IMG/VR virus record: IMGVR_UViG_3300046777_002658
Location: 1 to 64,000 of that record
Length of the DNA: 64,000 bases
Direction: 5' to 3' (one strand)
Origin: a virus
Shown here: positions 37,282-59,328 of the stretch, in pieces
How the letters are laid out: each line of letters begins with the position of its first letter
Position numbering within the stretch: the stretch's first letter is position 1
Translations under genes and position numbers: made by a program
The notes under the pieces: generated by a model
The model's input: only the letters and a program-made list of their open reading frames with translations
What the model was told of the DNA's origin: nothing
Database searches by the model: none

Positions 37282-37311
37282 GAACCAAGAAAAAAGAATA
37301 GAAAATAAGAA

Positions 37312-38001: not shown

Positions 38002-38053
38002 AGGAATTAAGTAAGTCTAGATTCAAAGTACAGTAGGTTTTGGAATAAACAAA

Positions 38054-38680
38054 ATGGAAAGTTACGCTTTTTTAGTAGCACAAAGAGATTATTTAAAAAA
38101 GTTTAAGCTACTCTCTTTCCCAATAGAAAAGGAAGATGACAGTAAAAAAGGAATAACAACTATTAGCATGAGCGTAGTTTTTGGTGATGAAAGCCACTTA
38201 ATTTCTAGATCGTCAAGAACTATTCCTGACTTTTGGGCTAATGCTGTAAAAATAGAATCTGCTAGGCAGACTATTTTGTACAATCACAAGAATAATGAGA
38301 TTAGCTTTCTGGAAGCTGTGGGAAACATGGTGCTAGAGGAGTTTTCTAATAGTCTGGTTAAGTCTGCTTCTATAAAAAACTACTTAGTAACTTATTGGGT
38401 TGGCTTGAATAGGTATATAGTACCCCTACAGCCCAACAAGTCTCACTTGATTCAAGACTACGAAAACTTAGTAGCTTCTAGAGCCTTGTTAAAAGGCTAC
38501 ACAATCAAAGAGATAAAAGGCAGTCACTTCGAGGTTACTTCTGCTTCTGGTAGAGTTCAAGCTACGTCTCTTAACAACTGCACTTGTAGGGAATTTACAG
38601 ACTTTAACGACTGCTTACACAACAAGTTTGCCAGAGCAGTAGCAAGAAATAGACCGCATCTAAGTTACTTACTGAGGTGA
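38054..38680 (+). CDS. SWIM zinc-finger protein, antisense within the head operon
   Basis: C-terminal CTCREF....DCLH (CxC..CxH). Confidence 0.7.
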   Translation: MESYAFLVAQRDYLKKFKLLSFPIEKEDDSKKGITTISMSVVFGDESHLISRSSRTIPDFWANAVKIESARQTILYNHKNNEISFLEAVGNMVLEEFSNSLVKSASIKNYLVTYWVGLNRYIVPLQPNKSHLIQDYENLVASRALLKGYTIKEIKGSHFEVTSASGRVQATSLNNCTCREFTDFNDCLHNKFARAVARNRPHLSYLLR

Positions 38681-40107: not shown

Positions 40108-40644
40108 TTATTTAAATAGTTTTTGGATTGTATTGTTAGAAGAACCAAAGTTTAGTTGTCCATTAAATTTTTCTCTAGCCATCTTAGCCTCTTGCTCCTG
40201 CTTTCTTAGATCTCTGCTGCGTTCTTCTCCTATCCTTGTAACTTCAAAAGCTATAGCTTTCTTGATCGCATCAGGCAAACCGTAATGCTTGTAAAAAGTA
40301 TCTTCGTTAAGACCAAACCAGTCTGCAACTGAGACTGGCATTAGTTGGTTTATAGCTACTAAACTAGCAATGTCATACTTTTTAGCAAGCCTCTCAGCAT
40401 CGTTTTGAGAACGAAAATAGTGCTGTGCAGAAAATATCTCTGCTTCCTTACTAGTGTTAAAGAAATGTTTGGGATTTAGAGGATACCAATCAGGAAAACA
40501 AGAAAGCTTCCCTCCCAACCTAGCACTAGATGTTATGGGTATAGGAGGTATGTACTTGCAGAATGGTACTAAGCTGAGGTAACAGTTGTAGTGCTTGCTT
40601 TTTTGGATGGAGATTTCTTCTTCCCAAGCGCGGCTTTCTTCAGC
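40108..40644 (-). CDS. Tail assembly chaperone T portion (-1 frame, expressed as G-T fusion)
   Basis: The frame of track ORF 40108-40518 stays open back to the slippery site at 40644-40650. Confidence 0.7.
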   Translation of the reverse strand, partial: AEESRAWEEEISIQKSKHYNCYLSLVPFCKYIPPIPITSSARLGGKLSCFPDWYPLNPKHFFNTSKEAEIFSAQHYFRSQNDAERLAKKYDIASLVAINQLMPVSVADWFGLNEDTFYKHYGLPDAIKKAIAFEVTRIGEERSRDLRKQEQEAKMAREKFNGQLNFGSSNNTIQKLFK

Positions 40645-41345
40645 TTTCCCCGCGCTTTAGCTGCTTCAGCACCATCATTGTCTAATAAAAATAAGTTAAC
40701 AAAAACTGTAGAAATAAACTGTACATCATCAATACGCTCTTCATCTAACAAGCACATTACATCTTTAGGCAGTTCTATAATAGGTGCTTGGTCAATAGAC
40801 TCTAGACACATCGCCACCAGCATTTCATCAAGAGTACAACCATTTTCTTGAGGACTCTTGTAAGAATTGTCAGCTTTCCATTGGGTAGAGGTGTTAGGAC
40901 GATTCAGAACATAACTCTTGCCAGAAGGAGTAATAGAACCAGGAATTAAAGTAGTCTGAGTTAAAGGCTTAACACGCTCTTCAACAGCAAAGTTTTTTGC
41001 AGAGCGAGAGTAGTCTTTGTCCAAAAAGCAAGTTTCAATAAACTCAATCATCATTGCCTGACGATCATCAATAGGAAAGGAAGCCAAACGTGATGGTAGG
41101 TCTTGTGCCTCCATAGGAATCTCTTTCTTACCTGTTTCGGTTTTAGCTTCTATTTTGGTCAACATAGAAGCAAACAGTAACTCCTCAACGCTGTAGTTGG
41201 GTCCTACTTCGCCCTCTCTGGTGGGATAAGGATAAATACGTTTAGCTTTTCTGTAATCTCCATAGTTAGGAGCTTGGTAGGTAATAGTTAGCTTCCGGTT
41301 TGGTAAGTCTGCTGCGTCAATAACTAATAGCTGTTTATCAAGCAT
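40569..41345 (-). CDS. Tail assembly chaperone G
   Basis: Internally duplicated chaperone-like sequence (APNYGDY/RPNTSTQ; EELLFA/DEMLVA); G-GGA-AAG slippery heptamer near the 3' end. Confidence 0.75.
   Translation of the reverse strand: MLDKQLLVIDAADLPNRKLTITYQAPNYGDYRKAKRIYPYPTREGEVGPNYSVEELLFASMLTKIEAKTETGKKEIPMEAQDLPSRLASFPIDDRQAMMIEFIETCFLDKDYSRSAKNFAVEERVKPLTQTTLIPGSITPSGKSYVLNRPNTSTQWKADNSYKSPQENGCTLDEMLVAMCLESIDQAPIIELPKDVMCLLDEERIDDVQFISTVFVNLFLLDNDGAEAAKARGKLKKAALGKKKSPSKKASTTTVTSA
40644..40650 (-). promoter_or_regulatory. Programmed -1 frameshift heptamer GGGAAAG
   Basis: CG(G) GGA AAG in the G reading frame, identical to the lambda G/GT site; the -1 frame is open for 178 further codons. 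Confidence 0.8.
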
Positions 41346-41424: not shown

Positions 41425-44400
41425 ATGGAAGAAAATAGTAATTTACTAGACAACAACAATGATTATGATGATTACTCTGAGGAGCTCTACAATAATAACA
41501 CCTTAACAGAAGCTCCAACAGAGCAAGAGATAAGAGAGAACCCCTTCAGAAGTCTTATTGAATACAATATTAATCATGGCGGGGGAATTAATAAATTCTT
41601 TGACAGCTCAGACTATAACCAGTCTGACCCCTTTAAAGCCGCCGCAAACTTGAGTATTAGTTTTAACCAAAAGATGCTGGGGGTTGAAGCTAGAACTCAA
41701 AGAGAGTATTTAGAGTTTGCTGTGCAGGTACAAGCGGATAGACTGTCTTCTGCGATAGGTAGCTATGAAGCTGATATGCAGAGAGCAACAGGACATAACC
41801 TAGCTGGCGAGAGAGTAGAAACCTATAAATCTCCAAACGGCTTCCTGACTAGACCTACTCAATATGATACCTACTCCTTGTTCTCTAATCAAGAGGCTAG
41901 AGAAATGGGGCTAAGGTTGTCTATGTACCAACTACCAGAGACAAACACAGTAGTTGGTATCTCACAGCGCAGCAGAAGCAGCACAGAAATAGTAACCCAA
42001 AGCTTTTTAAACTCTGATCAATCAAGAAGAGACTTGTCCTCCACAAACTCACAAAGGTCTATGAGAGTCTTAGTGGGTAACGAGGTAGCTAGTAATATTC
42101 TTAATAGAAATGAGAATATAAATGTTTATGGTGTAGGAATGCCTCAAGGAGCTAACTTACACGCTAAGGTTGGGTATTTATATACTAATAATAGTCTTGA
42201 GACTGACTACAAAGATACTTTAAGAAACCAGAAAGCGCAAACAGCTTTTATATCTACACAAAATATTACCTCTGCCCTTCCAAAAGCTAATACCTCCGAG
42301 GAGATGTTAGTTCTTTCTAGAGGAGACATATACAGAAGCAATAACCAAAATCCGCTTACTTATAGAGACTCTATTCTTGACGAAAGAGAAGAAATTAGAA
42401 ATCGCTTAATAGATCAGTTAAAAGGTGTCACAGATGCTATAGCTAGTCTAGCTAAGTCTCAACAAAGACAGGTAGAAAAAAGCTTTAGAGAAAGTGTTAA
42501 ACAAGTTACAAAAGATAATATAACAAGCTTAGAAAGCATGAGAGCGGGTGCTAACTCCTCTGTGTTTGTAAATGAAGATATTTTAATAGAGATTAAAAAT
42601 AAAGTTAAAGATGCTGCTGAAAAAAGCAGCACTAAAAAGGTAGTTTTATCAATCCAGTATTTAGAGAATATATTTCTTGACAATAGCTCAAACTCTTCTA
42701 GCAGGTATGATAACGATGTAAGAATACCCATGCTAAACGCTCTGGAATTGTTATCAAAACAAGGTAGGTTAAGTCTTGCTACATCCAGCGTTAGTTTTGC
42801 TCCTGACCAAGGGTTGTTTAACATTTTAGATAAATTTCACTCCAATGAGATAACCGGTTATAGCAAAACAGTTTTAAAAACCCTTTTAGACAATAACTCC
42901 TTTTCAATTCTGCCTACTAGTTTTGCTCACAGTAAGACGTTTGCCATCTTTGATATGCCAGAATCTAGACCAGACTTAAATAAGCTTAAACTAGATAGTT
43001 TTGGTATAAGTTCTGCTAACTTCACCCGCAACGCTTTCGAGAATAATATTGAGACTGGTTTAATTCTTGATAGGGACAGCCTAAGAGGATTAACAGACCG
43101 AGAACAGCAAGATATAACAAACTACTATTATTATGGTGTCAGTAATTTTAATAGGCTAAGAGCTCAAGGTTCATTTGTAGAAAGTAGAGGCAATGCAGAG
43201 CAAACAGAAAAATTAATAGGTATTCTGACATCTATGGGAGGTCAGGAGTCCAGAGAAAGAGTATCCGGCTCTCCCTTTGTTTTTAGTAGACGTTATGACA
43301 TTAACAGAGGTGTTGAGCTATCTGGGTTAGATATACAAATAAGGGGTTTAGGACAGGGTGCTAAGGGTTACTCGTTCTCTGTCACTGTAGGACAGGAGTA
43401 TGGTCAGAATGGCTATGAACCGATTGTTTATCTTTCTAAAAACAATCGTGTGATCAACGGGATGATCTATAAAAATGATTCATCTCAAGCTTTACAACTT
43501 TACAACGGTGAGTACCTGGCTCCAGGAGAAACTAGACAGTTTAGTGCTTTGGAAGTAGTGGCTGGTTTAGTTGACACACTGCGCCACACAACGCTTTTTG
43601 AGGCTTCTAGAGGATCTTTACAGACAGCTATAAAATCAATGACGACTGCTACCAGACTGCAAGGTTTGAGTAGAGTTTTGGGTAACCTACTGTTTGAGCA
43701 AGCTCAGTTGAAGAACTATATGAGCTGGTTAGACAGTCAGGGTTCAGGTTTTACTGATGTAATGACAAACCTGCACCAAAGAGATGCTGGAGCCAGAGGT
43801 TGGTTAAACAATATTCTTAACGATGGGAAAGATCAGAACATAGCTACAAAAACACTAGCTTCTTTAGCAGAAAGACTTAGTATTCCTTTGAGTCAATCTA
43901 GTTTAGGAACTGAAGTAGCAAGTAGACTACCTGAACGTACAGCACAAATTCTGGATATTCTGAATAAGGAAATTGGAGGCGATCGCAGAGATGTCGCTAC
44001 AACTACTGCTGGAATGGTAAAAGCTTTAGACAGACTATTAATGAATAGTTTAGATAATAGCCAAACAGCAACTCTCTACACTGACCTCTTAAGAATGATA
44101 GTTCAGCAAGATGCTGTGGCTAATGATATATACGAAAGAAGTCAGCAGAGAGCTAAACAAGAGTTGTTTTCACAAATGACTAGTGCTTTCATGCAGCCTC
44201 ATGAGTTGAGATACTCATTTGGGCAAGCATTGTATAAAAGACCAGTTTTTAGCATTAATAATGATTTATCTAAACTAGCAAGGTCACAAAATACTCTAGG
44301 GCTGCTTCTTTCCCCTCATGGCTTGAGGCATGGTGAATCTTTGGGTGACACTTACATTAGAGCGATAGCTGATAGTGTGAGATTCACTGAAAGAGATTTA

Positions 44401-47400
44401 TACAGCAATCAAGGTGGTATTTATAAAGCAGAAGGTGGAGCAGCGACTATTCGTCATGCTGAATCAATGCTGGGAACTATGAGAGGTATAGGTATTCTCA
44501 GAAGGAGTGAGTATAGAGACAGATCTTTAGCTGCTTATATTGCTGTTGGTCTGTCTGATGAACAAGCAAGAAGGAGAACAGAAGAGCAAGAAAAAGAAGT
44601 ATTCAAATTACAAGAGTTGTCTGGTAATAGTTCAAGCAACCTGTTCTTCTTTCCTTATAGAGTCACAGAGCAAATCTCTGGACGATTAAAGAACCTACAG
44701 AGCGGTAGACCTCTAGAAGCTGCTTCTGCTAGATTTGCTACCTATGCCCATACTTTAGGAGTTGTTGGTAACGACAGTTATAGTGATTTATCTAATATGT
44801 TGTCTGGTAACATCTTTACAAGCCTACCAGAACATCAATATAAGTATCTGCAACAGTTAATTATAGACCACGGCAGTTATGAAAATGTTTTAAATTATAT
44901 TCGTACTAATATTCATGGTGATTCTTTAAGTCTAGTCAGAGGTTTACTTGGAGGATCAGCGCCTAAAAGAGTTTTACAGAGCATGGGTATCTCAACAATG
45001 TCTGACTTTGCTTATGTAAACTCAGAGTATAAGGACGCAGATAAAAACTCTTTAGAGTATGCTTACTTGCACAAAACCTCTATGAGTTTTGATACTACCC
45101 AAATTCTTAGTAACGTCGAGTTTGCTGGTAAAGTAGCCAGAACTTTAACTAAAGGTGTAACCTTCCTTGCTAAAGATACTCTTATAGATAATGTTAGTTT
45201 AAACAAACATCTGCAAGATAAGGTTCTAGAAGATATTGCAGCCATTGACTCAACTATCACTGGTAGTTTTAAAGAGCAGTTGCAAAAGTTGGATAAGGGG
45301 CAACTAAAAGATCTAGAAAAACTAGTTGCGCTGAAGTATAACACTGTCCAGTTTAAAGCCTCCAAAGGTCTGTTCTTCTTTAAGAAAGGTGTTCACTCAG
45401 CAGCAGAAGGCAGCAGCATAGAGGAAAGGCTGCATAGCAAAAGGCTGATAGGTGAGTTTCAAGAGACTAAAGGAACTTTTACTATTAATGGTTTTTACCA
45501 GTATGAAAGTATGGGCGGTCAAGAAAAGGCTGCTAAACTAATATCCTTTAAACTACCAGCTACCAGTCAAAGAATATATGGTGGTGTGACTGTTTTGCAC
45601 GAACAACCGAGAGTTTATTTTAGTGGTTCCTCTACTCTAAACCTAGAAATGGAGACCTCAACCATCGGTAGAGATAGTTCTGGTAGGAGACCAGGTAGCG
45701 ATACTAATAAAGGACCAAACTTATATCTTGCTGGAGACTTGTTTGACTTCTTAGACAAGTACAGTGGAACAAATAAAAACCTACTGCCTGACAGAGTTAA
45801 AGATCAAAAGATTTATTCAGTTATCTCCCCATCCCAGATTAAAGGTTTTAATTTTGAGCAAGGGTTGATGCTAATAGAGCAGAGACATGGTAATAGGTTT
45901 TTAGACCTAATAGAAAGTGATAGAGGTGGCAGAGCTGTCGCAGAAGGTCTAGCCTTGATGATGCTACAGTCTAAGGATAGCAATGAAGTGACCATCTCTG
46001 AGCTGCTTGGTCAAAGTTTAATTGATGAGGGTGGGGACAGAAAATCAGTAGGCTACTCTTTTCTTATGAAGCCTGGTGGAAAAGCTGTTGGTAAGAAACT
46101 ACCAGAGAAGGATAACAACCCAACAATCTCTTCTGCTTTACAAGGCAGCTTTCTTCTGTATGACCAGTTTGGATCTTTGGCTTTACCAGAGTTTTTGAAT
46201 AGTAACATGACTATAAGCCAAGCTCTCACTAAAACTGTAGCCCTAGCTCTTGGTACTGGTAATGATTCAGAGAAAGCAAGGCTGCACTTGAAGAATAGAA
46301 GTGCTGAAATCTTTAGGCAAGTTCAAAGAAAAAGTGATAAGGAATTAGGTGTTTTAGACCCTTCTAGATATATCTTCAGTGATGGGTTTGATAGTAGGTC
46401 AGCGAGCGTTCTGGCTTATCTAGTAAAAGCTGGGCAAGATTTGTTAGGTAAAGTTGATACAAATGCTAGGTTATCAGGCAACTCTATCAGTGAGGTAAAC
46501 CCTGCTTACTTTATGGGTACTGAAAATAGAAGAAGGTATCTAGGTGAAGTAGCAGGAGAAGACTCTAAAACCAGAAGAGCAATGTTAGCTTCTGTTAGAA
46601 GAGTGGCTGCTGGCTTAGGAGTACATCTACCAGCGCCAGAAGAAATTAATAATGCCAACGATGCTGAAAGAGGCATACTTGAAAGAAGACTAGAATACGG
46701 TCTTTCTCAAGTTAATGCTATGCTGCGCTTGAATAGATTCTTGGAGTTTGGTATGGAACAACTACCAAGCAAAGTATCTGTGGCAGTTGGTATGCAGAAC
46801 ATGACTAAACTAGAAGGTCAGTATGCCTTAGAACTATCTCAGCGGGAGTTAGGTTTGTTTACCAACACTTTGCAAGAGAAGCAAGATGTTTTGACCATTC
46901 AAAAGGCTGTTCTTTTACTAGGTAGTTTAATGGAAGGACATCTGCCAGACCCCTATAAAGCTTCTAAACTGTACAGTTTAAAAGTTACTAATCTTGCTTC
47001 TGCTAATGAAGAGGCAGGGTTTAGTAAAAGTTTACACTTCTCAACTAAATTCCTGAGTAACTTTAGTAGAGTAGCAGAGAAGACCTTGCCAACAGTTGTA
47101 AAAGGAAAAAGAGGATTTAGCACTCCCTTAGCGGAAGATGCTGTTCTAGCTTATATGTTTGGTGCAGATGCCACTAATGCTAACAACTTAGTAGATAAGA
47201 TGGGTTTAGTAAGAAGTCAAGTTAGCGGGATGGTGTTACCTTCAGCTCAAGATGCCGAGTTTGGTGTAGACCACAGAAGAAGATTGTTAGAGCAGACTAT
47301 CCTCAGCGAACTAAAGATTGATCCAGAGCAAAGAAAAGCAATCCAAAACGAAGTTATAGGAATTATAAAAGACTTTGAGCCTACAACTCGACTAAAGGCT

Positions 47401-50400
47401 ATTAGAGGTAGCAACCCTGGTAGACAAGACTTTATTAATAGAAACCTTAGAAACGTTATTATAGAGCGTGCAGAAAGAACTTTGCAAAAAGGTGAGAAGC
47501 TCATAGCTCCAGTCTCTTACTACGAAGACTTTTTCTACAATTTAACAAGAGGATTAGTTGATAAAGAGCCAGCAGTTTTAAAAGAGTTTTCTGACCCAGA
47601 CACACAAAAAGTTGCTACTTACCTAACAGACGACTTGCTTAGAGCAAGTGGTGTATATAAGCATTACCAAGGAGAACTAAATGAGAGAATCAGAGCTTCT
47701 CAAACAACTGGTACTGGGCTAGAGTATATCAGCTACGGTCTAGAAGTTTTGAGAAGTGTAAGCAGTAAGTTCTTGAGCGGAACTGAACCAGAGAAAAAGA
47801 AAGCTCAAAGCTTGTATGACTCTATAACCAAAACCCAAAGGTTGGTTCTGCCAGTGCTGACTGGTTATGGAATGAAAGAAGGTCGCTACGAAGTCAGCTA
47901 TGCTTCTACAAGAACTGAAAGCCCCAACCAGGGTTTGCTGTTAGGGTTAGACCTAATGCAGAAACTTTCTTTGGTATTCCAAGGTGAAAGCCACGCTGCG
48001 CTGGATACACAAGTTGCTTTGGTAAGACAACTAGACGCTACAAAAGGCATCTTACAGAAGCTTAGGTCTGGAGGAAAAGTAGAGTTAGATGACTATGAAC
48101 TAACTCAGTACCGCAGACTAGAGTTTTTAATGAGAGAATCTGTTGAAACCACTGCTCAACTGTTAAATAATCAAGAGACTATCAGACAAGCCGGGAATGA
48201 CAGACTGAAGTTATCAGGTATTAGTGCGATCGCTATGTCAAGCTTGTTATTAGCTGATGATGAAGTTGGCTTTGGCTCAAGATTTGATGAAGTGACTTCT
48301 ACAGGTGATAGATCTAAGTTTGGGTTAAGAGGGCAGATTGGTAGAATGCACAGAGAGCTTGTTAGTCGAGCTAATCAGGTGTCAAATGCTCAAAGAGAGC
48401 TTGACAATATGTCAATCCAATTAGCAAAAGAAACTGGGACTGGGATAAGTGGTAGAGAAGTAGAGCTTTTAGTAGGTACAGAGCACAGGAAGATGAGCTC
48501 TTTAATCAATGAATGGAAAGACAACCAAAGAAAACTAAAAACCGTTGAGAGGCTTGCTGCTTCAGCCAGACAAAACAGAAGTTTAACACAACGTGAAGCT
48601 CAAGAGATAGAACAACTTGGGGCTACAGATAAACAAGCGGGAAACCGTCTTGTAAAAATCAACTCCTATGTAACTAAAAAGCTTTTAAAGGCATTTGGTT
48701 TAGTCTACAGAAAAATAAGAGAAGCACCAGAAGTAGAAGGTGAAAGATATAATTTAGTCGAAGTAACCAAAACTAGACCTCTTATTATAGGAGGAGAGGT
48801 AGAGTCTTACGCTAAAGACGGCAGTAGAATTAAACGCTATAAAGAGTATGGAGACTTAGAAGTTGGCTTAAAGGATTCTAATCATATTATAGCCTTCAGT
48901 GATATTGATGAATTTGAGAAAATAGCCACAGGTAAATTAAGAAAAGAAGGTATTGCTATTGGAAAAAGAATAAAAGCTCAAGAATCTTATATACAAAAAC
49001 TAGAGACTAAACTTAGAGAAGCTCCTTTTATACTAGCTAATAAGCAAAGTGAACTTGAGTTATATTTACAAGACACAGCAACCAAACTAAACAACCTTAA
49101 GTCAGCCTTTTTAAAAGAAGAGTTAAAACCTAATCAATTAATAGCTGTTACAGACTTAAGACCATTAATATCCTCAGACAACAGAGTTGATTTCTTAGAG
49201 TTTGCTAACGAGTATATCTTGAAGCTCTTAATGTCTGATAATACTAAGGCTACCTCCAAAGAATATGAGAAAGACAGAATATTAAGAGAGAAGCTAAAAA
49301 CTATTCCTTTGTTTGAGAGGCTTTTAGCTGCAAAAAGAAGAGATGCAAAAGCCTCAGCCAGAGCAAATTTTAATCTTATTGAAGGTGTTTACTATAATGA
49401 TGCTACTAACGTTAGACAAGGTAGCCCTTCTGGGGCTTCTGTACCAGCTGATAGTGGGACAAGATTTGTTAGTATAGTTCCTGTAGAGACAGAACTGGCT
49501 GGTAGAGCCGAGGCAACAAAAACTTTTATAACTCCTGCCCAGCAGCAATCTAGTACAGTAATGCTGGTAGCTGCTTTAGGGCAACATTATACGCAATTAG
49601 GGGATAATGACGGTGACAGTTTCCAAGGTGCTGTTACTCAGTTAGCAAGCATAACAAGACTAATCCAGCAGCAGCAAGAGAAGATTCAAAAGTTAGCTGC
49701 TTCTAAGAAAGACTATTCACATGATGTTTCTTTATCTGATGAGCAGATAGAACACTTTAACAATCTTAATGAAAAAGCTGTCAGAGCAGAGTTAGCAGAG
49801 TTAGAGGTCCACAGAGATGTGTTGCTAAAAGCTTATCAAGAGAAGAAGTCTAATGCTAGTGCTAAAGCTGCTGAAGGAATGAGAAGGTTTACTGCTACCT
49901 ATACAGCAGTGCCAGAAGAAATGATGGGACCCAGCGGAGTTCTAAGAGATGAGCAACATCAACCACTAGTTAAGCAATATAGAGACACCTTAGATGGTGT
50001 TTATGGAAATACTAAACACGCTGTAGATGCTATTGGAAATTTAAATGCTGACGTGTTATCTAAATTAGAGTTAACACAATCTGGTACTGGCTTTAGGGTT
50101 GATAATCTTACTGATTTAAATTTAACACAAGAACAGCAAGATGGGGTTAGAGCCGAAATTGATTGGTATAACCAACAGTTTGGTAGAGACCATCAAGACC
50201 AACAATCCTTTAAAGAAGCTATCATCATCCAGCAAGCTACTAAAGCTAACGTTAACGCTGCTGTGAGCAACGTTAGTAACAAACAAATTCCAGCTGCTTT
50301 AGGGTCAATAGTTGATGACCAAAGACTAACAGAACTACAGTCAATTCTTGGTGCTTCTGGTTCAGGTTTGTTGGGTACTACATATAATACTGTAGTTCCT

Positions 50401-53187
50401 TTAGTAGCCCTAAAGATGGGTGAGTTGACAGCTCAACAAACTTTAAAAGGTGAGCAAGGTAGGTTCTACAGAATGTCACTGGCTGCCGGTCTTACAAAGG
50501 AAATAGCCAAGGTTGAGAAAGAATTAGTTCTTGACCGCCAAAATAAAACACTACTAGCTATAAAAAACGAACTAGAAGCAAAAAGAAATACCTACTTTTT
50601 CTCTACTGAGTCTATGGCTACCAAGCTAAGACTACAAGAAGGTAAAAAACAGGTTGAAGTGGCTATGAGATTTGTTATCACCACTCAACAGTTCTTAAGA
50701 GACGCTGGTATCAAACCCAAAGAAGATAAAAGTAGTGCTGTTAAAACTACAATCCTAGAAGAAGCTGATAACTTTACTCTGTCAGGTAGTGACTTAGAAA
50801 AGTATGGCATCAGAGTAGATGAAGGAGAAACTAGCGTCCGAGGTTTGACAAACATTTTTAATAGACTTACTGGTGAAGACGTAGCGGTAAGAAATAACAG
50901 AGAAAATATTCTAACCAGATTCTTAGGAGACAAGGTTGGTAATAATCTAGATATTTACCTTGATGGGGAAGACAGACCGGACGGAGATATATCTAATAAG
51001 CAAATTAGAGCCTTCACAGCCTTAAAACTGATGACAGAATATGTCTCTGGTAGGTTTGAAGATACCTCTTCAATGATTGCTGGAAGCGTATTTTCAGGCG
51101 TTTTAAGCTCTCTAAGAACTAATAAGAAGTATAGTAGTTTGTCGGATGACGAGTTTATACCTAAACTGATTGCTAACCTGACTAGTAGTTTTCAATCTGA
51201 GTATATTCTCAAGAACACAATAGAAATAGAAAACCAATTATCTTTTGCCAGCACAGGTAAAGAGATACTAAACTTTTATGGAATAGAAGCTGACGGAAGT
51301 TTAAACAGAACTGCCATAGATAGTATTGTTGATAAAAAGAGAGCTTCTCTTTCTGGTGAGGATAAGTACACAGGAGAAGAGTTAGACAAGTTAGAGAAGT
51401 ATTTAAAGGGCTATAGAGATGAACAACTAGACCGACAGCAGGCTATTGCAGAAGCAACAGTTAGAAAAGGGCTGACAGATGACTTCAAAATATTTGAGGC
51501 TGCTTTAGCAACCAGTATCAACAAAACACTAGAGTATGACCAGCAAAGACTAGAGAATCAAATAGTAGAACTAAAAAGTCTGCATTCTACGCTAGGTCAA
51601 ATAAGAGAAGGTGGAGTTCCAAATGACCTAGAACAAAACTTAAATCTTTATACAACTGCTTTTGCTAACCAACTAGGAGCTGGCAAGATTGACTCTACTA
51701 TGTGGTCTGGCTTCTTTGCTGAGTCGTTACCAGAAGTCGCTAGGTTAGCCAAAGAGCATGGTGACGGTTCTGAGTCATCATATAAAGCCTTCTTTTCTTT
51801 ACTGGGTCTTGAAGGCACATCTATACAGGGAGATTTAACAGATAGTAATAGTAAGGAAGTCAACAATAAAGTTTTGGCAGCAGCAGTCAGTCAAGGTATG
51901 ACACCAGCAGACAAGCTAGAGCTGGCCAAAGAGTACACAAGGTTTATGGGTGGCAATGTTGACTCTACAGCTTTACAAGTCGAGCTTGATAGCCTGGATA
52001 AAGAAGGTAGATACTTATCAAAGGATGCTGAAAGAGTATTGCTACAGCAGTCAGGTCTGTCTGTCAAAGCAGCTGAGACCTTTGCTGCTGGTATAGACAC
52101 AATTAGAAACCTCTCAGAAACAGCTTCCGCTGCTGAGTATGCTGCCAGCCAGAGTGCTTTTAACTATACTAAAGCTGACTTAAACTTACAATACACAAAT
52201 TTGATAGCTCAACAAGTAGAAACTGCTAATAATACAGACATATCACTAGAAGAGAGGGAAAGGCTAAACGTTGAGTACGAAGCTACTAAAAATCATATAG
52301 AAACTCAGATGTTACAAGCTCAACAGGCTGTCAGAACAGGTGAAGTGGTTAATAGTCTTAAAGAAAGAAGAGCAGTTTTAAATGACACCGTTAACCAACT
52401 GCAGGCATCTCTTAACCAAACTGTTGAGGCTACTATCAAAAAGTCTCAGGAGGATTATGTCACCAAAACTACTAAAGAACTGACAAGAGTTAACGCTGCT
52501 TCTGAAGCAGTTAGCATATTTACTATTCCTATTCTGTTTGCTCTAATGCAAGGTAAGTCATCAGCTTCAGAGCAGGTTATACAAGGGGTAACAGATACTG
52601 CTCAAGCTTACCTTGGCTCTAGTTTTGCTCCTGGGCACAACTTAGAAAAAACAGCTGAGAAAATGAGAGAAGCCAGAATAAGAAGTAGCTTAAATATGAG
52701 CGGTAGCAGCACAGCATCCTTACTAGGAGCTACAGCTTTTGAAGCTATTTTTAACGCTAGTTCTGTTATCTCTAATAAAGCAGTACAAGCTATATCTGAT
52801 AAGATCGGTGGTTTTGCTGCTACACCAGGAGGTAGATTTGCTGGAGAGTTGATTGGTGGTGTCTTGGGCATAAGTTTAGCTGGTCTTGTTACTAACAGAA
52901 AAGCTGGTCTACCAGGAGAAAAAACAACAGAGCAAGATGTTGCTGACAGAATTATTGAAGGTATTAAGCAGTCAGCTCAAGCTGCTTCTGCTAGATACAG
53001 TGAAATGATTATTGCTAAAGCAAGTGTTGAAGTGGAGGGAGAGGATAATGCTAGTGTTGAAAGTCATTTAATAACGTCAGATTATCGAGAGGATGGTCAC
53101 TTATCTATTATGGAGAAAGACGAGCTTACTGGAGTAACTGCTAGAACTTATGAAGGTGACCAAATACAAACTTGGATGGAGGGCTAA
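41425..53187 (+). CDS. 3920-aa tape-measure-position protein with two PLD-type motifs and two-barrel RNA polymerase motifs (candidate virion RNAP fusion)
   Basis: LHAK(246-248)..ISTQN; HSK(502-504)..SSANFT..NIETG; GRRPGSDTNKG(1420-1430)..ISPSQIKG; NVRQGSP..LGDNDGD(2727-2731); hydrophobic Gly/Ala C-terminus; adjacent to the G/GT chaperone. Confidence 0.7.
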   Translation: MEENSNLLDNNNDYDDYSEELYNNNTLTEAPTEQEIRENPFRSLIEYNINHGGGINKFFDSSDYNQSDPFKAAANLSISFNQKMLGVEARTQREYLEFAVQVQADRLSSAIGSYEADMQRATGHNLAGERVETYKSPNGFLTRPTQYDTYSLFSNQEAREMGLRLSMYQLPETNTVVGISQRSRSSTEIVTQSFLNSDQSRRDLSSTNSQRSMRVLVGNEVASNILNRNENINVYGVGMPQGANLHAKVGYLYTNNSLETDYKDTLRNQKAQTAFISTQNITSALPKANTSEEMLVLSRGDIYRSNNQNPLTYRDSILDEREEIRNRLIDQLKGVTDAIASLAKSQQRQVEKSFRESVKQVTKDNITSLESMRAGANSSVFVNEDILIEIKNKVKDAAEKSSTKKVVLSIQYLENIFLDNSSNSSSRYDNDVRIPMLNALELLSKQGRLSLATSSVSFAPDQGLFNILDKFHSNEITGYSKTVLKTLLDNNSFSILPTSFAHSKTFAIFDMPESRPDLNKLKLDSFGISSANFTRNAFENNIETGLILDRDSLRGLTDREQQDITNYYYYGVSNFNRLRAQGSFVESRGNAEQTEKLIGILTSMGGQESRERVSGSPFVFSRRYDINRGVELSGLDIQIRGLGQGAKGYSFSVTVGQEYGQNGYEPIVYLSKNNRVINGMIYKNDSSQALQLYNGEYLAPGETRQFSALEVVAGLVDTLRHTTLFEASRGSLQTAIKSMTTATRLQGLSRVLGNLLFEQAQLKNYMSWLDSQGSGFTDVMTNLHQRDAGARGWLNNILNDGKDQNIATKTLASLAERLSIPLSQSSLGTEVASRLPERTAQILDILNKEIGGDRRDVATTTAGMVKALDRLLMNSLDNSQTATLYTDLLRMIVQQDAVANDIYERSQQRAKQELFSQMTSAFMQPHELRYSFGQALYKRPVFSINNDLSKLARSQNTLGLLLSPHGLRHGESLGDTYIRAIADSVRFTERDLYSNQGGIYKAEGGAATIRHAESMLGTMRGIGILRRSEYRDRSLAAYIAVGLSDEQARRRTEEQEKEVFKLQELSGNSSSNLFFFPYRVTEQISGRLKNLQSGRPLEAASARFATYAHTLGVVGNDSYSDLSNMLSGNIFTSLPEHQYKYLQQLIIDHGSYENVLNYIRTNIHGDSLSLVRGLLGGSAPKRVLQSMGISTMSDFAYVNSEYKDADKNSLEYAYLHKTSMSFDTTQILSNVEFAGKVARTLTKGVTFLAKDTLIDNVSLNKHLQDKVLEDIAAIDSTITGSFKEQLQKLDKGQLKDLEKLVALKYNTVQFKASKGLFFFKKGVHSAAEGSSIEERLHSKRLIGEFQETKGTFTINGFYQYESMGGQEKAAKLISFKLPATSQRIYGGVTVLHEQPRVYFSGSSTLNLEMETSTIGRDSSGRRPGSDTNKGPNLYLAGDLFDFLDKYSGTNKNLLPDRVKDQKIYSVISPSQIKGFNFEQGLMLIEQRHGNRFLDLIESDRGGRAVAEGLALMMLQSKDSNEVTISELLGQSLIDEGGDRKSVGYSFLMKPGGKAVGKKLPEKDNNPTISSALQGSFLLYDQFGSLALPEFLNSNMTISQALTKTVALALGTGNDSEKARLHLKNRSAEIFRQVQRKSDKELGVLDPSRYIFSDGFDSRSASVLAYLVKAGQDLLGKVDTNARLSGNSISEVNPAYFMGTENRRRYLGEVAGEDSKTRRAMLASVRRVAAGLGVHLPAPEEINNANDAERGILERRLEYGLSQVNAMLRLNRFLEFGMEQLPSKVSVAVGMQNMTKLEGQYALELSQRELGLFTNTLQEKQDVLTIQKAVLLLGSLMEGHLPDPYKASKLYSLKVTNLASANEEAGFSKSLHFSTKFLSNFSRVAEKTLPTVVKGKRGFSTPLAEDAVLAYMFGADATNANNLVDKMGLVRSQVSGMVLPSAQDAEFGVDHRRRLLEQTILSELKIDPEQRKAIQNEVIGIIKDFEPTTRLKAIRGSNPGRQDFINRNLRNVIIERAERTLQKGEKLIAPVSYYEDFFYNLTRGLVDKEPAVLKEFSDPDTQKVATYLTDDLLRASGVYKHYQGELNERIRASQTTGTGLEYISYGLEVLRSVSSKFLSGTEPEKKKAQSLYDSITKTQRLVLPVLTGYGMKEGRYEVSYASTRTESPNQGLLLGLDLMQKLSLVFQGESHAALDTQVALVRQLDATKGILQKLRSGGKVELDDYELTQYRRLEFLMRESVETTAQLLNNQETIRQAGNDRLKLSGISAIAMSSLLLADDEVGFGSRFDEVTSTGDRSKFGLRGQIGRMHRELVSRANQVSNAQRELDNMSIQLAKETGTGISGREVELLVGTEHRKMSSLINEWKDNQRKLKTVERLAASARQNRSLTQREAQEIEQLGATDKQAGNRLVKINSYVTKKLLKAFGLVYRKIREAPEVEGERYNLVEVTKTRPLIIGGEVESYAKDGSRIKRYKEYGDLEVGLKDSNHIIAFSDIDEFEKIATGKLRKEGIAIGKRIKAQESYIQKLETKLREAPFILANKQSELELYLQDTATKLNNLKSAFLKEELKPNQLIAVTDLRPLISSDNRVDFLEFANEYILKLLMSDNTKATSKEYEKDRILREKLKTIPLFERLLAAKRRDAKASARANFNLIEGVYYNDATNVRQGSPSGASVPADSGTRFVSIVPVETELAGRAEATKTFITPAQQQSSTVMLVAALGQHYTQLGDNDGDSFQGAVTQLASITRLIQQQQEKIQKLAASKKDYSHDVSLSDEQIEHFNNLNEKAVRAELAELEVHRDVLLKAYQEKKSNASAKAAEGMRRFTATYTAVPEEMMGPSGVLRDEQHQPLVKQYRDTLDGVYGNTKHAVDAIGNLNADVLSKLELTQSGTGFRVDNLTDLNLTQEQQDGVRAEIDWYNQQFGRDHQDQQSFKEAIIIQQATKANVNAAVSNVSNKQIPAALGSIVDDQRLTELQSILGASGSGLLGTTYNTVVPLVALKMGELTAQQTLKGEQGRFYRMSLAAGLTKEIAKVEKELVLDRQNKTLLAIKNELEAKRNTYFFSTESMATKLRLQEGKKQVEVAMRFVITTQQFLRDAGIKPKEDKSSAVKTTILEEADNFTLSGSDLEKYGIRVDEGETSVRGLTNIFNRLTGEDVAVRNNRENILTRFLGDKVGNNLDIYLDGEDRPDGDISNKQIRAFTALKLMTEYVSGRFEDTSSMIAGSVFSGVLSSLRTNKKYSSLSDDEFIPKLIANLTSSFQSEYILKNTIEIENQLSFASTGKEILNFYGIEADGSLNRTAIDSIVDKKRASLSGEDKYTGEELDKLEKYLKGYRDEQLDRQQAIAEATVRKGLTDDFKIFEAALATSINKTLEYDQQRLENQIVELKSLHSTLGQIREGGVPNDLEQNLNLYTTAFANQLGAGKIDSTMWSGFFAESLPEVARLAKEHGDGSESSYKAFFSLLGLEGTSIQGDLTDSNSKEVNNKVLAAAVSQGMTPADKLELAKEYTRFMGGNVDSTALQVELDSLDKEGRYLSKDAERVLLQQSGLSVKAAETFAAGIDTIRNLSETASAAEYAASQSAFNYTKADLNLQYTNLIAQQVETANNTDISLEERERLNVEYEATKNHIETQMLQAQQAVRTGEVVNSLKERRAVLNDTVNQLQASLNQTVEATIKKSQEDYVTKTTKELTRVNAASEAVSIFTIPILFALMQGKSSASEQVIQGVTDTAQAYLGSSFAPGHNLEKTAEKMREARIRSSLNMSGSSTASLLGATAFEAIFNASSVISNKAVQAISDKIGGFAATPGGRFAGELIGGVLGISLAGLVTNRKAGLPGEKTTEQDVADRIIEGIKQSAQAASARYSEMIIAKASVEVEGEDNASVESHLITSDYREDGHLSIMEKDELTGVTARTYEGDQIQTWMEG

Positions 53188-53711
53188 AGATGACTAGCGG
53201 GTCATTTGTGGAAAGTAACAGGTATAAAAAGATTTTAGCTCTAACAAGCAAGGCTAATTACTATGTTCTAGGATTTGGAAGATATACACCTTGGACTTTA
53301 GACTTAACGCCTCCTGTTGTATCAGGAGTAGAAACTAGCGTAGACGAATTATTTGGTTTTATTAGAGTTATACAAATTACTGGTGTTGCTAAAACAACTC
53401 AACAGCTATCTGATTTTAGTGTGAATGGTGATTATTATAAAAAATTACCAAATACTGTACAAGATTTATCTACTGCTAAGTGTAAAGAACTATGCTTTGA
53501 AGGAACTCTGACTCATTCTGAAATAACTCAACCTAGCTGGAGGTCATTGAGCTTACATGAGTCACCTACAGCTCTCACACTTACAGGATTTATTACTGCT
53601 ACTTTAGCAGGCTTATCTTTAACTTACCTAGCACACTTTAGACCTAGAACTAAAGAGAGTGGTGCAATAGAGACTATCCGATTGATACTTCCTATTGATG
53701 GAGGGCTGTAA
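53172..53711 (+). CDS. Baseplate wedge-like protein (T4 gp8-like pattern)
   Basis: YYVLGFGRYTPW....PP...ELFGFIRV. Confidence 0.5.
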   Translation: MDGGLKMTSGSFVESNRYKKILALTSKANYYVLGFGRYTPWTLDLTPPVVSGVETSVDELFGFIRVIQITGVAKTTQQLSDFSVNGDYYKKLPNTVQDLSTAKCKELCFEGTLTHSEITQPSWRSLSLHESPTALTLTGFITATLAGLSLTYLAHFRPRTKESGAIETIRLILPIDGGL

Positions 53712-54850
53712 TGGCACAACTATTTGGTTCTAATAACCCCTTAACAGCCCAACTAATAGCTCTAGCACTCCCAAAAAGTGATAGTAAAAAACCTAACAAA
53801 TCTACAGGTGCAGCATCCAGAGTCATAACGCCAGCTATTGTTGGTAATGACTTGGTTAATGCAAACGCTCGAAGAAATAAAAAAGACTCTTTTACAGTTG
53901 ATTATTACGTTGGGGAAAAAGAAGGTCAAGCAAATTATTTAAAGTTTACGTTTGCTTTGCTACCAGCTATAGATAATATTGTTAACTACTCAGCTTCTAG
54001 TCCATTCAGGGGTAATGAGAGCGTACCTGAAGTGAAGCCAGGTATTCCTATCAGAACTGCTATGAAGCATAGAAATACTGTTATTCCTGGTGGTACCAAC
54101 GTTATTCAGACAATTGGAATAGATAGTAAGTACATTGTTTTGGTAGGGGCTTTTGTTGGCACTGAAAAGTCAACTAGTGGAGATTCAGTTGGGGCTACTT
54201 TCTACGACACTATATACCAAAGAGCTGGAAACCCTAAAGGGCCGCTACCTGAGTATAGCTCTTACAAACAAGCAAAGTTTTTTAACGATGAAGTTGTAGA
54301 AAAAGGAGCTCCTGTTACTATAACTATTCAGACAGAGGGACAAAAACCTGATGATTCTATTAAGGTAACTGGTGTAATAGTAGACTTTAAGATTCAGGCT
54401 GTTAGGGAAGCTAAGACCTACTATGCTATGACTATTCTTTATACCAACAGTCTCAGAAATAAAACTAAAGATGCAGCTGCTACCACCACTGAGCCTACCA
54501 CCACTGCGCCTACCACCACTGCGCCTGCTCCCTCGTCAAACATTCCTACTAGTAATAACTCCACCAAAACCACAAAACTGAAAACACTACCGGCAGGCGA
54601 GGTTGGAAAGCAGCTAATTGGTAGAGAGTGGAACCAATACTTAGCTAGAACCGTAGGAGAGGTATATGATTTTTGGGGCGAAGCAGATGGTTCTCATCGT
54701 GAAAAACTAAGTAATGATATGTATACCTTCAGATACAAAAGAAAAGACAAGAGCGGGAACGTACTACGTCCTAACAAGGATAATATTATTGTTATTACTG
54801 TCGAGTTTAGCTCGGATAAAAATAGTTGGTTTGTGACTGATGCGTATTAA
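53711..54850 (+). CDS. Probable tail tube initiator/virion protein with Thr/Pro linker
   Basis: PGGTNVIQTIG...V.LVGAF...KITGVIVDF; linker encoded by three 15-bp repeats at ~54480-54526. Confidence 0.5.
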   Translation: MAQLFGSNNPLTAQLIALALPKSDSKKPNKSTGAASRVITPAIVGNDLVNANARRNKKDSFTVDYYVGEKEGQANYLKFTFALLPAIDNIVNYSASSPFRGNESVPEVKPGIPIRTAMKHRNTVIPGGTNVIQTIGIDSKYIVLVGAFVGTEKSTSGDSVGATFYDTIYQRAGNPKGPLPEYSSYKQAKFFNDEVVEKGAPVTITIQTEGQKPDDSIKVTGVIVDFKIQAVREAKTYYAMTILYTNSLRNKTKDAAATTTEPTTTAPTTTAPAPSSNIPTSNNSTKTTKLKTLPAGEVGKQLIGREWNQYLARTVGEVYDFWGEADGSHREKLSNDMYTFRYKRKDKSGNVLRPNKDNIIVITVEFSSDKNSWFVTDAY

Positions 54851-54884
54851 TTGGTTTGTGGCTGATGCGAAAAAGTTAGACTAG

Positions 54885-58743: not shown

Positions 58744-58747
58744 TCCT

Positions 58748-59325: not shown

Positions 59326-59328
59326 ATA

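Follow-up and report, generated by a model that had tools for sequence, protein, structure and literature searches.

The giant gene and its neighbourhood

The DNA analysed here (the window) comprises positions 1 to 64,000 of the IMG/VR virus record IMGVR_UViG_3300046777_002658, and holds a giant gene that reads away from a head module. The genes around it, and the parts of its product lying outside the polymerase-like and PLD-type regions, are as follows:

34857..40096, minus strand: head module (Mu-like portal, head protease, major capsid protein) that is read away from the giant gene
40108..41345, minus strand: two small genes of 136 and 258 aa with no family match, which separate portal gene and giant gene, in either orientation, in every related locus
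41425..53187, plus strand: giant ORF, 3920 aa, uninterrupted, member of a phage protein family of 3000-5400 aa
48292..49374, plus strand: length-variable, poorly conserved stretch with many long helices (aa ~2290-2650)
49645..50754, plus strand: mostly helical conserved region 3′ of the Asp triad (aa 2740-3110), with invariant G2960, G2976, G2984, Y2987, Q3088, Q3089, R3092, D3093 and K3097
52489..52554, plus strand: hydrophobic segment 1, candidate membrane helix (aa 3689-3710)
52837..52899, plus strand: hydrophobic Gly-rich segment 2, candidate membrane helix with conserved G/E/R positions (aa 3805-3825)
53172..55916, plus strand: downstream genes in the same orientation, coding for a virion/baseplate-network-like protein (179 aa), a protein of 379 aa that has paralogues in relatives, and one of 343 aa

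An earlier note on this DNA had described a 3920-aa ORF at 41425-53187 on the plus strand, which is indeed a single unbroken frame, and all the motifs that it quoted are found in the giant protein. The hydrophobic Gly/Ala C-terminus that it had also pointed out consists of two such segments, at aa 3689-3710 and aa 3805-3825, the sole ones in the whole protein. Outward from the giant gene, the order of the 258-aa, 136-aa, portal, protease and capsid genes on one side and the 179-aa and 379-aa genes on the other is kept in all loci with enough flanking sequence, down to 21% identity of the giant protein. The same genome also encodes a second, different giant polymerase-like gene, ORF B, which starts at 62070, carries an SRAP...GDFDGD motif together with AlkB and helicase domains, and adjoins an early-type gene block. 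BLASTP among the three giants of this genome found no similarity.

The giant protein belongs to a large family that occurs in freshwater metagenomes. With a profile of aa 2640-3110 and a limit of E<=1e-3, 72 clusters were retrieved, almost all of them with 3000-5400 aa; at 50% identity the family counts about 70 clusters. Two members carry names, gp080 of the Microcystis phage Ma-LMM01 and a Microcoleus phage protein, both annotated as hypothetical; the link from the giant to Ma-LMM01 was found only through the Microcoleus phage protein as an intermediate.

Polymerase-like and PLD-type regions

Conventional searches gave no polymerase family for the giant protein through Pfam, PHROGs, NCBIfam or PDB sequence searches. 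The Pfam RNAP families matched neither the giant nor 13 relatives, PF00623 had no match anywhere in the genome with the cut-off relaxed to E 10, whereas the 14 control genomes all scored, and PHROGs holds no family for the giant. A whole-family profile against PDB sequences returned coiled-coil noise only, tblastn of aa 1-3000 against 50,697 phage records gave no match at 1e-5, hmmsearch against rpoB, rpoC, gp96, gp64 and gp66 gave none either, and hhalign of sub-profiles against single sequences of rpoB, rpoC, gp96, gp64, gp66 and ORF B stayed at probabilities below 2%. Because the curated Pfam models of Rpb1 and Rpb2 miss it, the giant is not filed here as a canonical beta/beta-prime polymerase but as a distant relative of that type.

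The case for this relationship starts from residue conservation. Conservation of the DxDGD motif in homologues had been named as a check in the earlier note, and D.DGD is kept in 67 of the 70 relatives scanned, in exactly one copy in 66, its middle residue being aromatic or Asn in all but one of them. In the two-barrel superfamily the Mg-binding Asp triad of the beta-prime-type barrel reads DxDxD, most often as D-b-D-G-D. Around it, R2664, G2726, D2727, D2729, G2730 and D2731 are invariant in 42 diverse members, and further downstream R3092, D3093 and K3097 are invariant as well, the comparisons covering 30-42 diverse family members. In the N-terminal half, K1429, P1431, K1473, D1194 and G1188 are invariant (30-31 members), as are Q1083, R1087, N1199 and G1480 across diverse members. 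Since these motifs persist in relatives down to 21-29% identity, they are more than chance. Eight residues have been reported as invariant in two-barrel polymerases, with three Asp plus Arg/Pro in one barrel and an Asp plus two basic residues in the other (PMC2919709), and the invariant residues of the giant family would fit most of these eight. PLD motifs are missing in some members while the polymerase-type residues are invariant in all, so that the polymerase-like part represents the conserved core of the family.

The beta-like half is made up of the following parts:

44653..45984, plus strand: beta/Rpb2-like module (aa ~1077-1520) from the fold model and invariant residues, with an invariant motif around Q1083, R1087, K1089, N1090 and R1095
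44953..45024, plus strand: aa 1177-1200, the first portion of the beta-like double-psi barrel, in which G1188, D1194 and N1199 are invariant and which parallels E. coli beta 800-818 (RVAFM..G....ED)
45058..45672, plus strand: insert in the barrel (aa ~1212-1416), a small helical bundle and a beta-sandwich like the beta flap
45682..45870, plus strand: second part of the beta-like barrel (aa 1420-1482), with the loop G-x-x-x-N-K1429-G-P and R1422, then V-I-S-P-S-Q-I-K1473-G-F-N-F-E-x-G1480

The AF2 model of aa 1060-1540 is confident (pLDDT 79.8, pTM 0.78), and RNAP second-largest subunits are its first matches, which bears out the fold check proposed for this side of the protein. With Foldseek against the PDB, chains of beta, Rpb2, RPC2 and poxvirus Rpo132 fill almost all of the top 50 rows, each of them weak singly (E 0.06-0.4). 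In the BFVD fold search the best match is Ma-LMM01 gp080 (E 2e-8) and the other named rows are mostly RNAP subunits of giant viruses and poxviruses; a comparison with 48,161 representatives placed RNAP second-largest subunits in five of the six top places at middling scores. VIA-align matches, like those of Foldseek, were to RNAP second-largest subunits. Designed DPBB proteins align to residues 118-420 of the same model.

Both motifs claimed earlier for this half, GRRPGSDTNKG from aa 1420 and ISPSQIKGFN at aa 1467-1476, stand, and the sequence parallels to E. coli beta include RV...G....D before a hydrophobic strand, G-x-x-x-N-K-G (beta 1060-1066) and V-h-x-P. D1194 and K1429 are invariant and R1422 nearly so; each falls within a modelled part of the barrel, and there are motif parallels to D814 and K1065 of E. 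coli beta. In the beta-type barrel of Rpb2, K979 and K987 form the basic pair and D837 is invariant (PMC2919709). The pair R1422/K1429 of the giant is 7 residues apart versus 8 in that barrel, and the second Lys that follows eight residues later in beta is absent after K1429. DNA-dependent RNAPs of the multisubunit type characteristically carry a flap (SBHM) insert in their beta barrel, which the RdRP/YonO type lacks (PMC7824862); the modelled beta barrel of the giant has a flap-type insert. Taken as a prediction of the fold model, a beta-like half of a two-barrel RNAP in the giant protein is supported.

A profile of aa 1315-1530 also gave a weak, short likeness to the archaeal Spt5/NusG N-terminus (E 0.02, about 45 residues, over the ..AILSPS.(I/V)KG(F/Y).F stretch), which we take for a chance motif likeness because in the model this stretch forms the second half of the barrel.

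For the other half, a single candidate feature was delimited:

49402..49644, plus strand: candidate beta-prime-like barrel (aa 2660-2740), R2664-x-G-x-P2668 ... G-D2727-N-D2729-G-D2731-S-F-Q, from invariance across relatives

Here too the quoted motifs, RQGSP at aa 2664-2668 and DNDGD at aa 2727-2731 (nucleotides 49603-49617), are in place. R2664 is invariant and P2668 nearly so, and the two-barrel superfamily has an invariant R-x-P upstream of the triad (Rpb1 R446/P448; PMC2919709). The Arg-Pro spacing varies, being R-x3-P in the giant, R-x-P in gp080 and R-x2-P in the Microcoleus phage protein, and the distance from Arg-Pro to the triad is 57-63 residues versus 37 in E. coli beta-prime and 35-43 in gp96, gp64 and gp66. 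In a shorter relative, P0046, some 850 residues separate the triad from the second part of the beta-like barrel, and a chain of 1200 residues would hold both barrels. The AF2 model of aa 2640-3110 is poor (pLDDT 62, pTM 0.33): its residues 13-49 and 63-95, which hold R2664 and the triad, have pLDDT <50 and form helix or coil with no double-psi barrel seen. Fold searches with this model gave helical-hairpin matches only, and an ESM Atlas feature search of the same region gave no usable match. What supports a putative beta-prime-like half is the family-wide invariance of the Asp triad and the upstream Arg/Pro. The two-barrel RNAP proposed in the earlier note thus stands in its beta-like half through the fold model; for the beta-prime side the invariance of triad, Arg and Pro speaks in its favour, and the fold model there is too poor.

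N-terminal to both halves lies the PLD-type region:

42022..43104, plus strand: PLD-like region with two HKD-type motifs (aa ~200-560), from weak HMM matches and motif conservation
42160..42264, plus strand: HKD-type motif 1, H246-x-K248 ... S277-T-Q-N280, then E292/E293
42928..43053, plus strand: HKD-type motif 2, H502-x-K504 ... S530-x-N532 ... N541-x-E543

The PLD motifs reported previously (LHAK...STQN at aa 245-280 and HSK...SSANFT...NIETG at aa 502-545) were recovered. They form a pair, H246/K248...T278-Q-N280 and H502/K504/D510...S530-A-N532, each followed by N/T-x-E and conserved in most relatives; in the PLD superfamily two HxK...D...G(S/T)xN motifs make up a single active site. The spacer of the first HKD motif is longer, and its canonical Asp position holds no Asp. 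Matches to known families are weak, with 13.7 bits for the giant against Pfam PLDc_2 (cut-off 27; E 0.056, sub-threshold; best relative 1.2e-4) and E 2e-4 at 20.9 bits against NCBIfam DrmC, whose threshold is 133. A search of PDB sequences with a profile of aa 190-580 came back blank. In BFVD, Ma-LMM01 gp080 bears the name ‘PLD phosphodiesterase domain-containing protein’. The suggested PLD nuclease or phospholipase pair can be kept as far as conserved motifs go, with HMM matches that are weak and sub-threshold. Two distant members (L016 and L018) have no PLD motifs, and because it is absent from some distant family members we regard the PLD region as an accessory domain.

Ma-LMM01 gp080 and known phage polymerases

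Ma-LMM01 gp080 (YP_851094, 3562 aa, ‘hypothetical protein’) is a full-length family member. It resembles the giant in the PLD region (1e-8), the middle region (1e-30), the beta-like region (5e-7) and the post-triad region (6e-43), has DFDGD at residue 2537 and occupies the same divergent position beside portal and capsid genes, although the two are only ~17-27% identical. It also differs in the first HKD position, where no His is aligned, and has a canonical HPK....D just before its GTxN. Its transcript is absent at 1 h and present at 3-6 h, with log2 values of 0, 0, 7.3 and 8.5, and was assigned to the ‘middle’ class B5 (PMC5780444 Table S3); gp080 is not an early gene, given this timing. The expression is like that of gp064, with a small rise from 3 h to 6 h, and capsid genes reach ~14 at 6 h (PMC5780444 Table S3). 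Sigma-70-like promoters were found for all gene classes of Ma-LMM01 (PMC5780444), and two papers describe the phage as having no RNAP of its own and all its promoters as host-like (PMC5780444, PMC9927357). In our literature search, gp080 was not described as a polymerase in the papers searchable, and we found no paper on the giant family, on its PLD fusion or on its presence in Ma-LMM01-type cyanophages.

Among characterized enzymes, gp96 of Thermus phage P23-45 (5002 aa; PMC10770324) is like the giant in its size, its single DxDGD (there DFDGD), its hydrophobic segments and its lack of sequence similarity to known RNAPs, but hhalign and hmmsearch detected no similarity between the two. Furthermore, gp96 serves as tape measure in a long non-contractile tail and is encoded in a tail module after chaperone-position genes, whereas the giant lies beside the portal in a contractile-tail phage. 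The RNAP of gp96 is N-terminal with the triad at residue 779, and the protein has a metallopeptidase; the giant has no peptidase, and its barrels are predicted at aa ~1180-1480 and ~2660-2740, after the PLD-type domain. P23-45 also has a second, non-virion two-barrel RNAP, gp64, a part that could be played here by ORF B and in Ma-LMM01 by gp064.

The virion RNAP gp66 of the crAss-like phage phi14:2 (2180 aa) was detected in virions and is active on early genes (bioRxiv 10.1101/2020.03.07.982082). Like the giant, it is encoded among structural genes, and it is a single-chain two-barrel enzyme as predicted for the giant. However, gp66 has DFDID and its fold groups with the RNAi polymerase QDE-1 (PMC10770324), whereas the giant module matches beta/Rpb2 with a flap-like insert; gp66 belongs to a podovirus and has no PLD domain, the giant belongs to a myovirus, and there is no sequence similarity between them. 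The virion RNAPs of phiKZ-like and AR9-like jumbo phages are multisubunit beta/beta-prime enzymes, a type predicted for the giant too, with the flap (SBHM) in the beta barrel and no sigma factor (PMC7598289, PMC7824862), and their pairing of a virion with a non-virion RNAP (PMC7598289) would be a further likeness to the phage of the giant. That said, they consist of 4-5 polypeptides whose pieces are recognised by Pfam-type methods, whereas the giant would hold both halves in one 3920-aa chain with extra domains, and no HMM picks these halves up. The virion RNAP of coliphage N4 (~3500 aa) is packaged in the capsid, ejected with the DNA and transcribes early genes (PMC13434306), the same logic as proposed below; it is a T7-like right-hand polymerase of unrelated fold, and the analogy is functional only. 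Given gp66 and P23-45 gp96, which are single-chain virion RNAPs, the architecture, of which the earlier note knew no description, cannot be called wholly undescribed, although its PLD fusion and the family itself were absent from the literature that we searched.

Proposed role of the giant protein and its alternatives

The giant is very probably a homologue of RNA polymerase, and a catalytically active one is likely; that it is packaged in the virion we consider moderately likely. Taken together, a one-piece member of the RNAP superfamily with a PLD-type domain, packaged in the virion for early transcription, is the working model that we favour with some confidence. The ORF, its family, the invariant motifs, the beta-like fold and the gene order are what the analysis shows of it; the beta-prime-like fold, catalysis, packaging with injection and the role of the PLD domain are what we infer. 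Along the chain, the PLD-type region (aa ~200-560) would be followed by the beta/Rpb2-like module (aa ~1077-1520), a variable helical spacer, the beta-prime-like segment (aa ~2660-2740), a helical region (aa 2740-3110) and the hydrophobic helices (aa 3689-3825). The flap-split beta-like barrel would supply D1194, R1422, K1429 and K1473, and the beta-prime-like segment R2664 and the Mg-binding triad D2727/D2729/D2731. A few copies of the giant may be packaged in the virion and enter the cell with the DNA, the hydrophobic C-terminus helping their passage through the envelope. Once injected, the protein would transcribe the first phage genes, possibly including ORF B at 62070, independently of the host polymerase, and the PLD domain would probably act during entry by cutting phosphodiester bonds, in nucleic acid or else in lipid. 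Indirect evidence favours packaging, namely the synteny with head genes, the non-early expression of gp080 and the C-terminal hydrophobic helices, as in ejected proteins. Against the working model stand the blank polymerase searches, the poor model of aa 2640-3110, the unusual Arg-Pro spacing and its distance from the triad, the missing second Lys after K1429 and the sigma-70-like promoters published for Ma-LMM01; the ‘middle’ expression class of gp080, which differs from that of capsid genes, counts against packaging.

The earlier note had instead placed the giant in a tape-measure position beside a G/GT chaperone, and this placement has to be given up. Immediately upstream are the 258-aa and 136-aa genes on the opposite strand, with no chaperone-like gene adjoining; transcription of the giant gene runs away from the genes for portal, protease and capsid, and those for sheath, tube-like and baseplate proteins are on the minus strand at 16.8-30.8 kb, 10-25 kb away. 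Its flanks are portal-side and fibre-like genes, the former in all relatives, and the giant gene is part of the structural gene block, not a tape measure. A tail tape measure with a fused RNAP and PLD domain is accordingly very improbable, even though the giant resembles tape measures in size, in its long helices and in the hydrophobic Gly-rich segments at its C-terminus, no tape measure was recognised by any library among the tail genes, and P23-45 gp96 proves that such a fusion exists (PMC10770324). The giant does not sit between tube or chaperone and baseplate genes, proteins of 678 and 609 aa encoded directly after the tube-like gene are candidates for that function, and it is another giant of the same genome that carries a Peptidase_M23 domain. 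Tape measures follow a rule of ~1.5 Å of tail per residue, by which 3560-3920 residues would predict 530-590 nm for this contractile-tail phage. The related MaMV-DH01, which holds a homologue, has a tail of 260 nm (PMC9927357).

Two other readings keep parts of the working model. A two-barrel RNAP might be made in the infected cell to transcribe middle or late genes, its place among structural genes being an accident of layout; the assignment of gp080 to the ‘middle’ class, with expression like gp064 and unlike capsid genes, agrees with this, and our literature search found no virion proteome for any family member. We find it unlikely: the place beside portal, protease and capsid genes is kept where giants are only 21-29% identical, a soluble transcription enzyme has no need of two C-terminal hydrophobic helices, a low transcript level is expected for a protein with few copies per particle, and ORF B, with its helicase and AlkB domains near the early-type block, suits a non-virion role better. 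Less probable still is an internal or ejection protein whose working enzyme is a PLD-type nuclease or lipase, the polymerase-like parts being chance or an inactive relic. It would account for the fact that the sole HMM matches of any kind are to PLD families and that UniProt names gp080 as a PLD domain protein, and it gains from the middling beta-like fold scores and from a beta-prime-like barrel not seen in the model. Against it, some members lack the PLD motifs and all retain the polymerase-type residues, strict conservation of the three Asp, the Arg, D1194 and K1429 at an overall identity of 17-25% is not what an inactive relic would show, and the top places among the 48,161 representatives went to RNAP second-largest subunits in five of six cases.

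Returning to the packaged polymerase, we put forward a wider and more tentative proposal, on which we remain somewhat doubtful. Ma-LMM01-type cyanomyophages (Fukuivirus and a wide metagenomic group of ~160-220-kb freshwater phages) might follow an overlooked, host-independent programme of two polymerases, in which the gp080-type giant, a fused beta-beta-prime enzyme with a PLD-type domain and membrane helices, travels in the particle, is ejected and starts transcription and an unrelated giant two-barrel enzyme (ORF B with its AlkB and helicase domains here, gp064 in Ma-LMM01) takes over, each with a private promoter class. If true, this would overturn the published view that all gene classes rely on host sigma-70, and single-chain virion RNAPs would gain a third lineage, independent of the others and descended from the flap-bearing beta/beta-prime type. 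Among the relatives of the polymerase that transcribes every cellular genome, the two-barrel enzymes encoded by phages are the most divergent, and ideas about the minimal core and about sigma-free promoter recognition have changed with each new lineage. Here the family is large and extends to Ma-LMM01, the best-studied Microcystis phage; should gp080-type proteins be active, the takeover strategy of cyanophages that control toxic blooms needs re-reading, the puzzling unchanged host transcription in Ma-LMM01 infection finds a simple explanation, and a cultured, testable system is available. For structural work, a single chain in which a beta half precedes a beta-prime half, with a flap insert and a fused PLD-type domain, would be a new architecture.

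Scans for promoter and terminator consensus sequences around the giant gene stayed at chance level. The genome as a whole has strand-specific private upstream motifs that are unlike sigma-70 promoters, and these, together with ORF B, count in favour of the working model; its candidate promoter motifs are ACAGCCGC(G/T)TAG and the AAGAAAAAAGAATAG motif.

The giant gene and its neighbourhood

The window covers the first 64 kb of a record of 196,877 bp whose completeness is judged 94%. Its giant ORF at 41425-53187 (plus strand) runs without interruption to a product of 3920 aa. Every string quoted in the earlier note was found at the residue named there, and DNDGD is indeed encoded at 49603-49617. 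Near-identical copies of this stretch were found in freshwater and plankton metagenomes; since it recurs nearly unchanged across several studies, we regard the giant as a real environmental phage gene.

Genes around the giant ORF
40108-41345, minus strand: g258 and g136 (258 and 136 aa), without family match, nearest the giant
Beyond g258/g136, minus strand: Mu-like portal gene, reading away from the giant
After the portal, minus strand: head protease and major capsid protein genes, reading away from the giant
10-25 kb from the giant, minus strand: sheath (1149 aa), tube-like protein, 678-aa and 609-aa proteins
10-25 kb from the giant, minus strand: gp25-like and gp6/J-like baseplate proteins, large terminase
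Downstream, same strand as the giant: small virion or baseplate-network-like protein, fibre-like paralogues

The earlier note had taken the giant for a tail tape measure beside a G/GT chaperone. However, no chaperone of that type adjoins it, and the flanking gene order places it divergent from the head module and outside the tape-measure position, with the sheath, tube and baseplate genes 10-25 kb off, which makes this role very unlikely. The order capsid, protease, portal, g136, g258, giant, g179, g379 (the last two also named by protein length) is kept in 13 related loci as far as each extends, including those whose giants are only 21-29% identical. One sub-lineage has g258 and g136 inverted to the strand of the giant, still between it and the portal; because they hold this place on either strand, their products may act together with the giant protein during assembly or packaging. 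The capsid shares ~30% identity with its counterpart in the Microcystis phage Ma-LMM01 group. The sheath gene (27389-30838, minus strand) matches sheath families only in its C-terminal 450 residues, its N-terminal 680 residues lying outside any such match, and a tRNA-Pro (TGG) gene at 12129-12204 (plus strand) adjoins the large terminase gene.

A putative two-barrel RNA polymerase

Word-based and pattern-based searches recovered 10 proteins and 14 loci related to the giant at 21-97% identity, and a profile of aa 2640-3110, searched exhaustively, hit 72 clusters (49 at E<=1e-10), nearly all of 3000-5400 aa. The DxDGD motif, whose lack of conservation would, by the earlier note, have refuted the idea, is kept in 67 of 70 scanned relatives, in exactly one copy in 66, with Phe, Tyr, Trp or Asn as middle residue in all but one. 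Deposited members come from two phages, Microcoleus phage My-WqHQDG, where the member is the first CDS and is cut, and Ma-LMM01, whose gp080 (3562 aa, annotated as hypothetical) matches four separate sub-profiles of the family (1e-8 to 6e-43) and is encoded in the same divergent placement adjoining portal and capsid genes. At 17-25% overall identity, only ~55 positions are invariant, and these are grouped in clusters.

Conserved clusters in the family (residues of the giant; invariant unless stated)
Q1083, R1087, K1089, N1090, R1095
G1188, D1194, N1199
K1429, P1431, K1473, G1480; R1422 near-invariant
R2664, G2666, run G-D-x-D-G-D at 2726-2731
G2960, G2976, G2984, Y2987
Q3088, Q3089, R3092, D3093, K3097

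The likeness to the beta subunit noticed around aa 1420 is supported by AlphaFold2 modelling of aa 1060-1540 from a 31-row alignment (mean pLDDT 79.8, pTM 0.78). In Foldseek against PDB, second-largest RNAP subunits of bacterial, plastid, archaeal, eukaryotic and poxvirus origin fill almost all of the top 50 rows, none below E 0.001; in BFVD the best match is gp080 (E 2e-8), followed mostly by giant-virus and poxvirus RNAP subunits. Model residues 118-420 are matched by designed double-psi barrels, and model residues 152-355 by the beta flaps of E. coli and Thermus taken as separate domains, so the modelled barrel is split by a flap-like insert, the beta/Rpb2 topology, which is absent from the RdRP/YonO type (PMC7824862). 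The two barrel parts carry short patterns that also occur in the E. coli beta sequence: RV..., G....D before a strand, G-x-x-x-N-K-G and V-h-x-P. Profile comparison also gave a weak match (E 0.02) of aa ~1456-1498 (window 45790-45920, ..IYSVISPSQIKGFNF..) to the archaeal Spt5/NusG N-terminus (..IYAILSPSKVKGYIF..), probably by chance, though both proteins are transcription machinery.

For the beta-prime-like half, sequence comparison revealed an invariant Asp triad and upstream Arg/Pro, with a hydrophobic strand before G-D-x-D-G-D and a short hydrophobic stretch after it, as in rpoC, Thermus phage P23-45 gp96 and gp64, and the crAss-like phage phi14:2 virion RNAP gp66. It departs from them in two ways: Arg and triad lie ~60 residues apart instead of ~40, and the number of residues between Arg and Pro is not constant. 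Modelling of aa 2640-3110 falls below pLDDT 50 exactly at this segment, and fold searches with it returned helical hairpins. HMM and profile-profile methods linked neither half to known polymerases, as likewise reported for gp96 (PMC10770324). According to PMC2919709, every two-barrel polymerase keeps the same eight residues; three of the eight appear in the giant and five are plausible. A polymerase is well supported for the beta-like half and plausible for the other, and we place the giant with the known single-chain phage two-barrel RNAPs, as a new variety. In the earlier note the architecture was not known to have been described; our literature search found no paper calling any member of this family a polymerase, but single-chain phage enzymes of this kind are known. 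Passages in PMC5780444 and PMC9927357 state that Ma-LMM01 and MaMV-DH01 have no RNAP and depend on host sigma-70; Ma-LMM01 is a cultured relative in which the polymerase reading is testable.

PLD-type region, virion packaging and further candidates

Both tandem PLD motifs seen earlier are present; they are HKD-like, an N/T-x-E element comes after each, and most members keep them, but family-model matches are weak (PLDc_2, E 0.056 in the giant and 1.2e-4 in a relative; DISARM PLD protein DrmC, E 2e-4). The UniProt-derived name of gp080 is PLD phosphodiesterase domain protein. The giant thus likely carries a PLD-type domain, nuclease or lipase. Since some members, such as L016 and L018, lack the motifs, the polymerase-like part is the family core and the PLD part an accessory.

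It is attractive to suppose that the giant is packaged and injected with the virion: its place in the structural block is kept, its only two hydrophobic helices in 3920 residues are both C-terminal, and gp080 is silent at 1 h of Ma-LMM01 infection. Also in favour is a second giant gene, which would suit a non-virion enzyme. Against packaging, gp080 transcripts follow a "middle" and not a "late" profile (PMC5780444). The second giant ORF (window 62070-64000, on to genome 73826; locus L008) encodes a 3918-aa protein that combines an AlkB-type dioxygenase domain (Pfam 1.9e-28), NSRAP with GDFDGD (residue 2490) ~38 residues beyond it, and a C-terminal Pif1/RecD-like helicase; it shows no similarity to the giant at 41425-53187, and is a candidate non-virion RNAP. 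In Ma-LMM01, gp064 (1673 aa, hypothetical; NC_008562 43811-48832; L026 7812-12833, minus strand) has QRTP, 37 residues and GDADGD, the canonical beta-prime barrel spacing, and its gene adjoins the early cluster gp054-gp063 and a 42-bp tandem repeat; although Ma-LMM01 is described as lacking any RNAP, gp064 is its second candidate. A third giant ORF outside the window (4246 aa, genome 183614-196354, minus strand, locus L010), unrelated in sequence to both others, has PLDc_2 (6.7e-5, aa 476-589) and Peptidase_M23 (aa 3744-3845) matches; given its peptidase and its size, it may be an ejection or tape-measure-like protein.

Putative regulatory motifs

The 197-kb genome has exactly four copies of ACAGCCGC(G/T)TAG, at window 59368, 59429, 59785 and 62043, all on the plus strand within 2.7 kb (0/100 shuffles reached four matches). 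Three copies lie a few bases 3' of a stem-loop that is GC-rich and has a T-run. A start codon comes 9-15 nt after three of the four and ~40 nt after the copy at 59368; the copy at 62043 directly precedes the second giant gene. The motif may act as a private promoter or start-site element. GAAAAAA(A)GA(A/T)(A/T)(A/G)G, mostly AAGAAAAAAGAATAG and unlike a sigma-70 promoter, has twelve exact plus-strand copies, at genome 75334-103471 and 163914 (outside the window) and one at window 37289; most precede small genes after the second giant gene. Window 58001-64000 has a G+C of 0.44-0.47 versus 0.37-0.42 in the 20 kb before, and holds short plus-strand genes, the majority with a strong stem-loop in front, and an anti-repressor (Ant)-like gene at 60796-61902.
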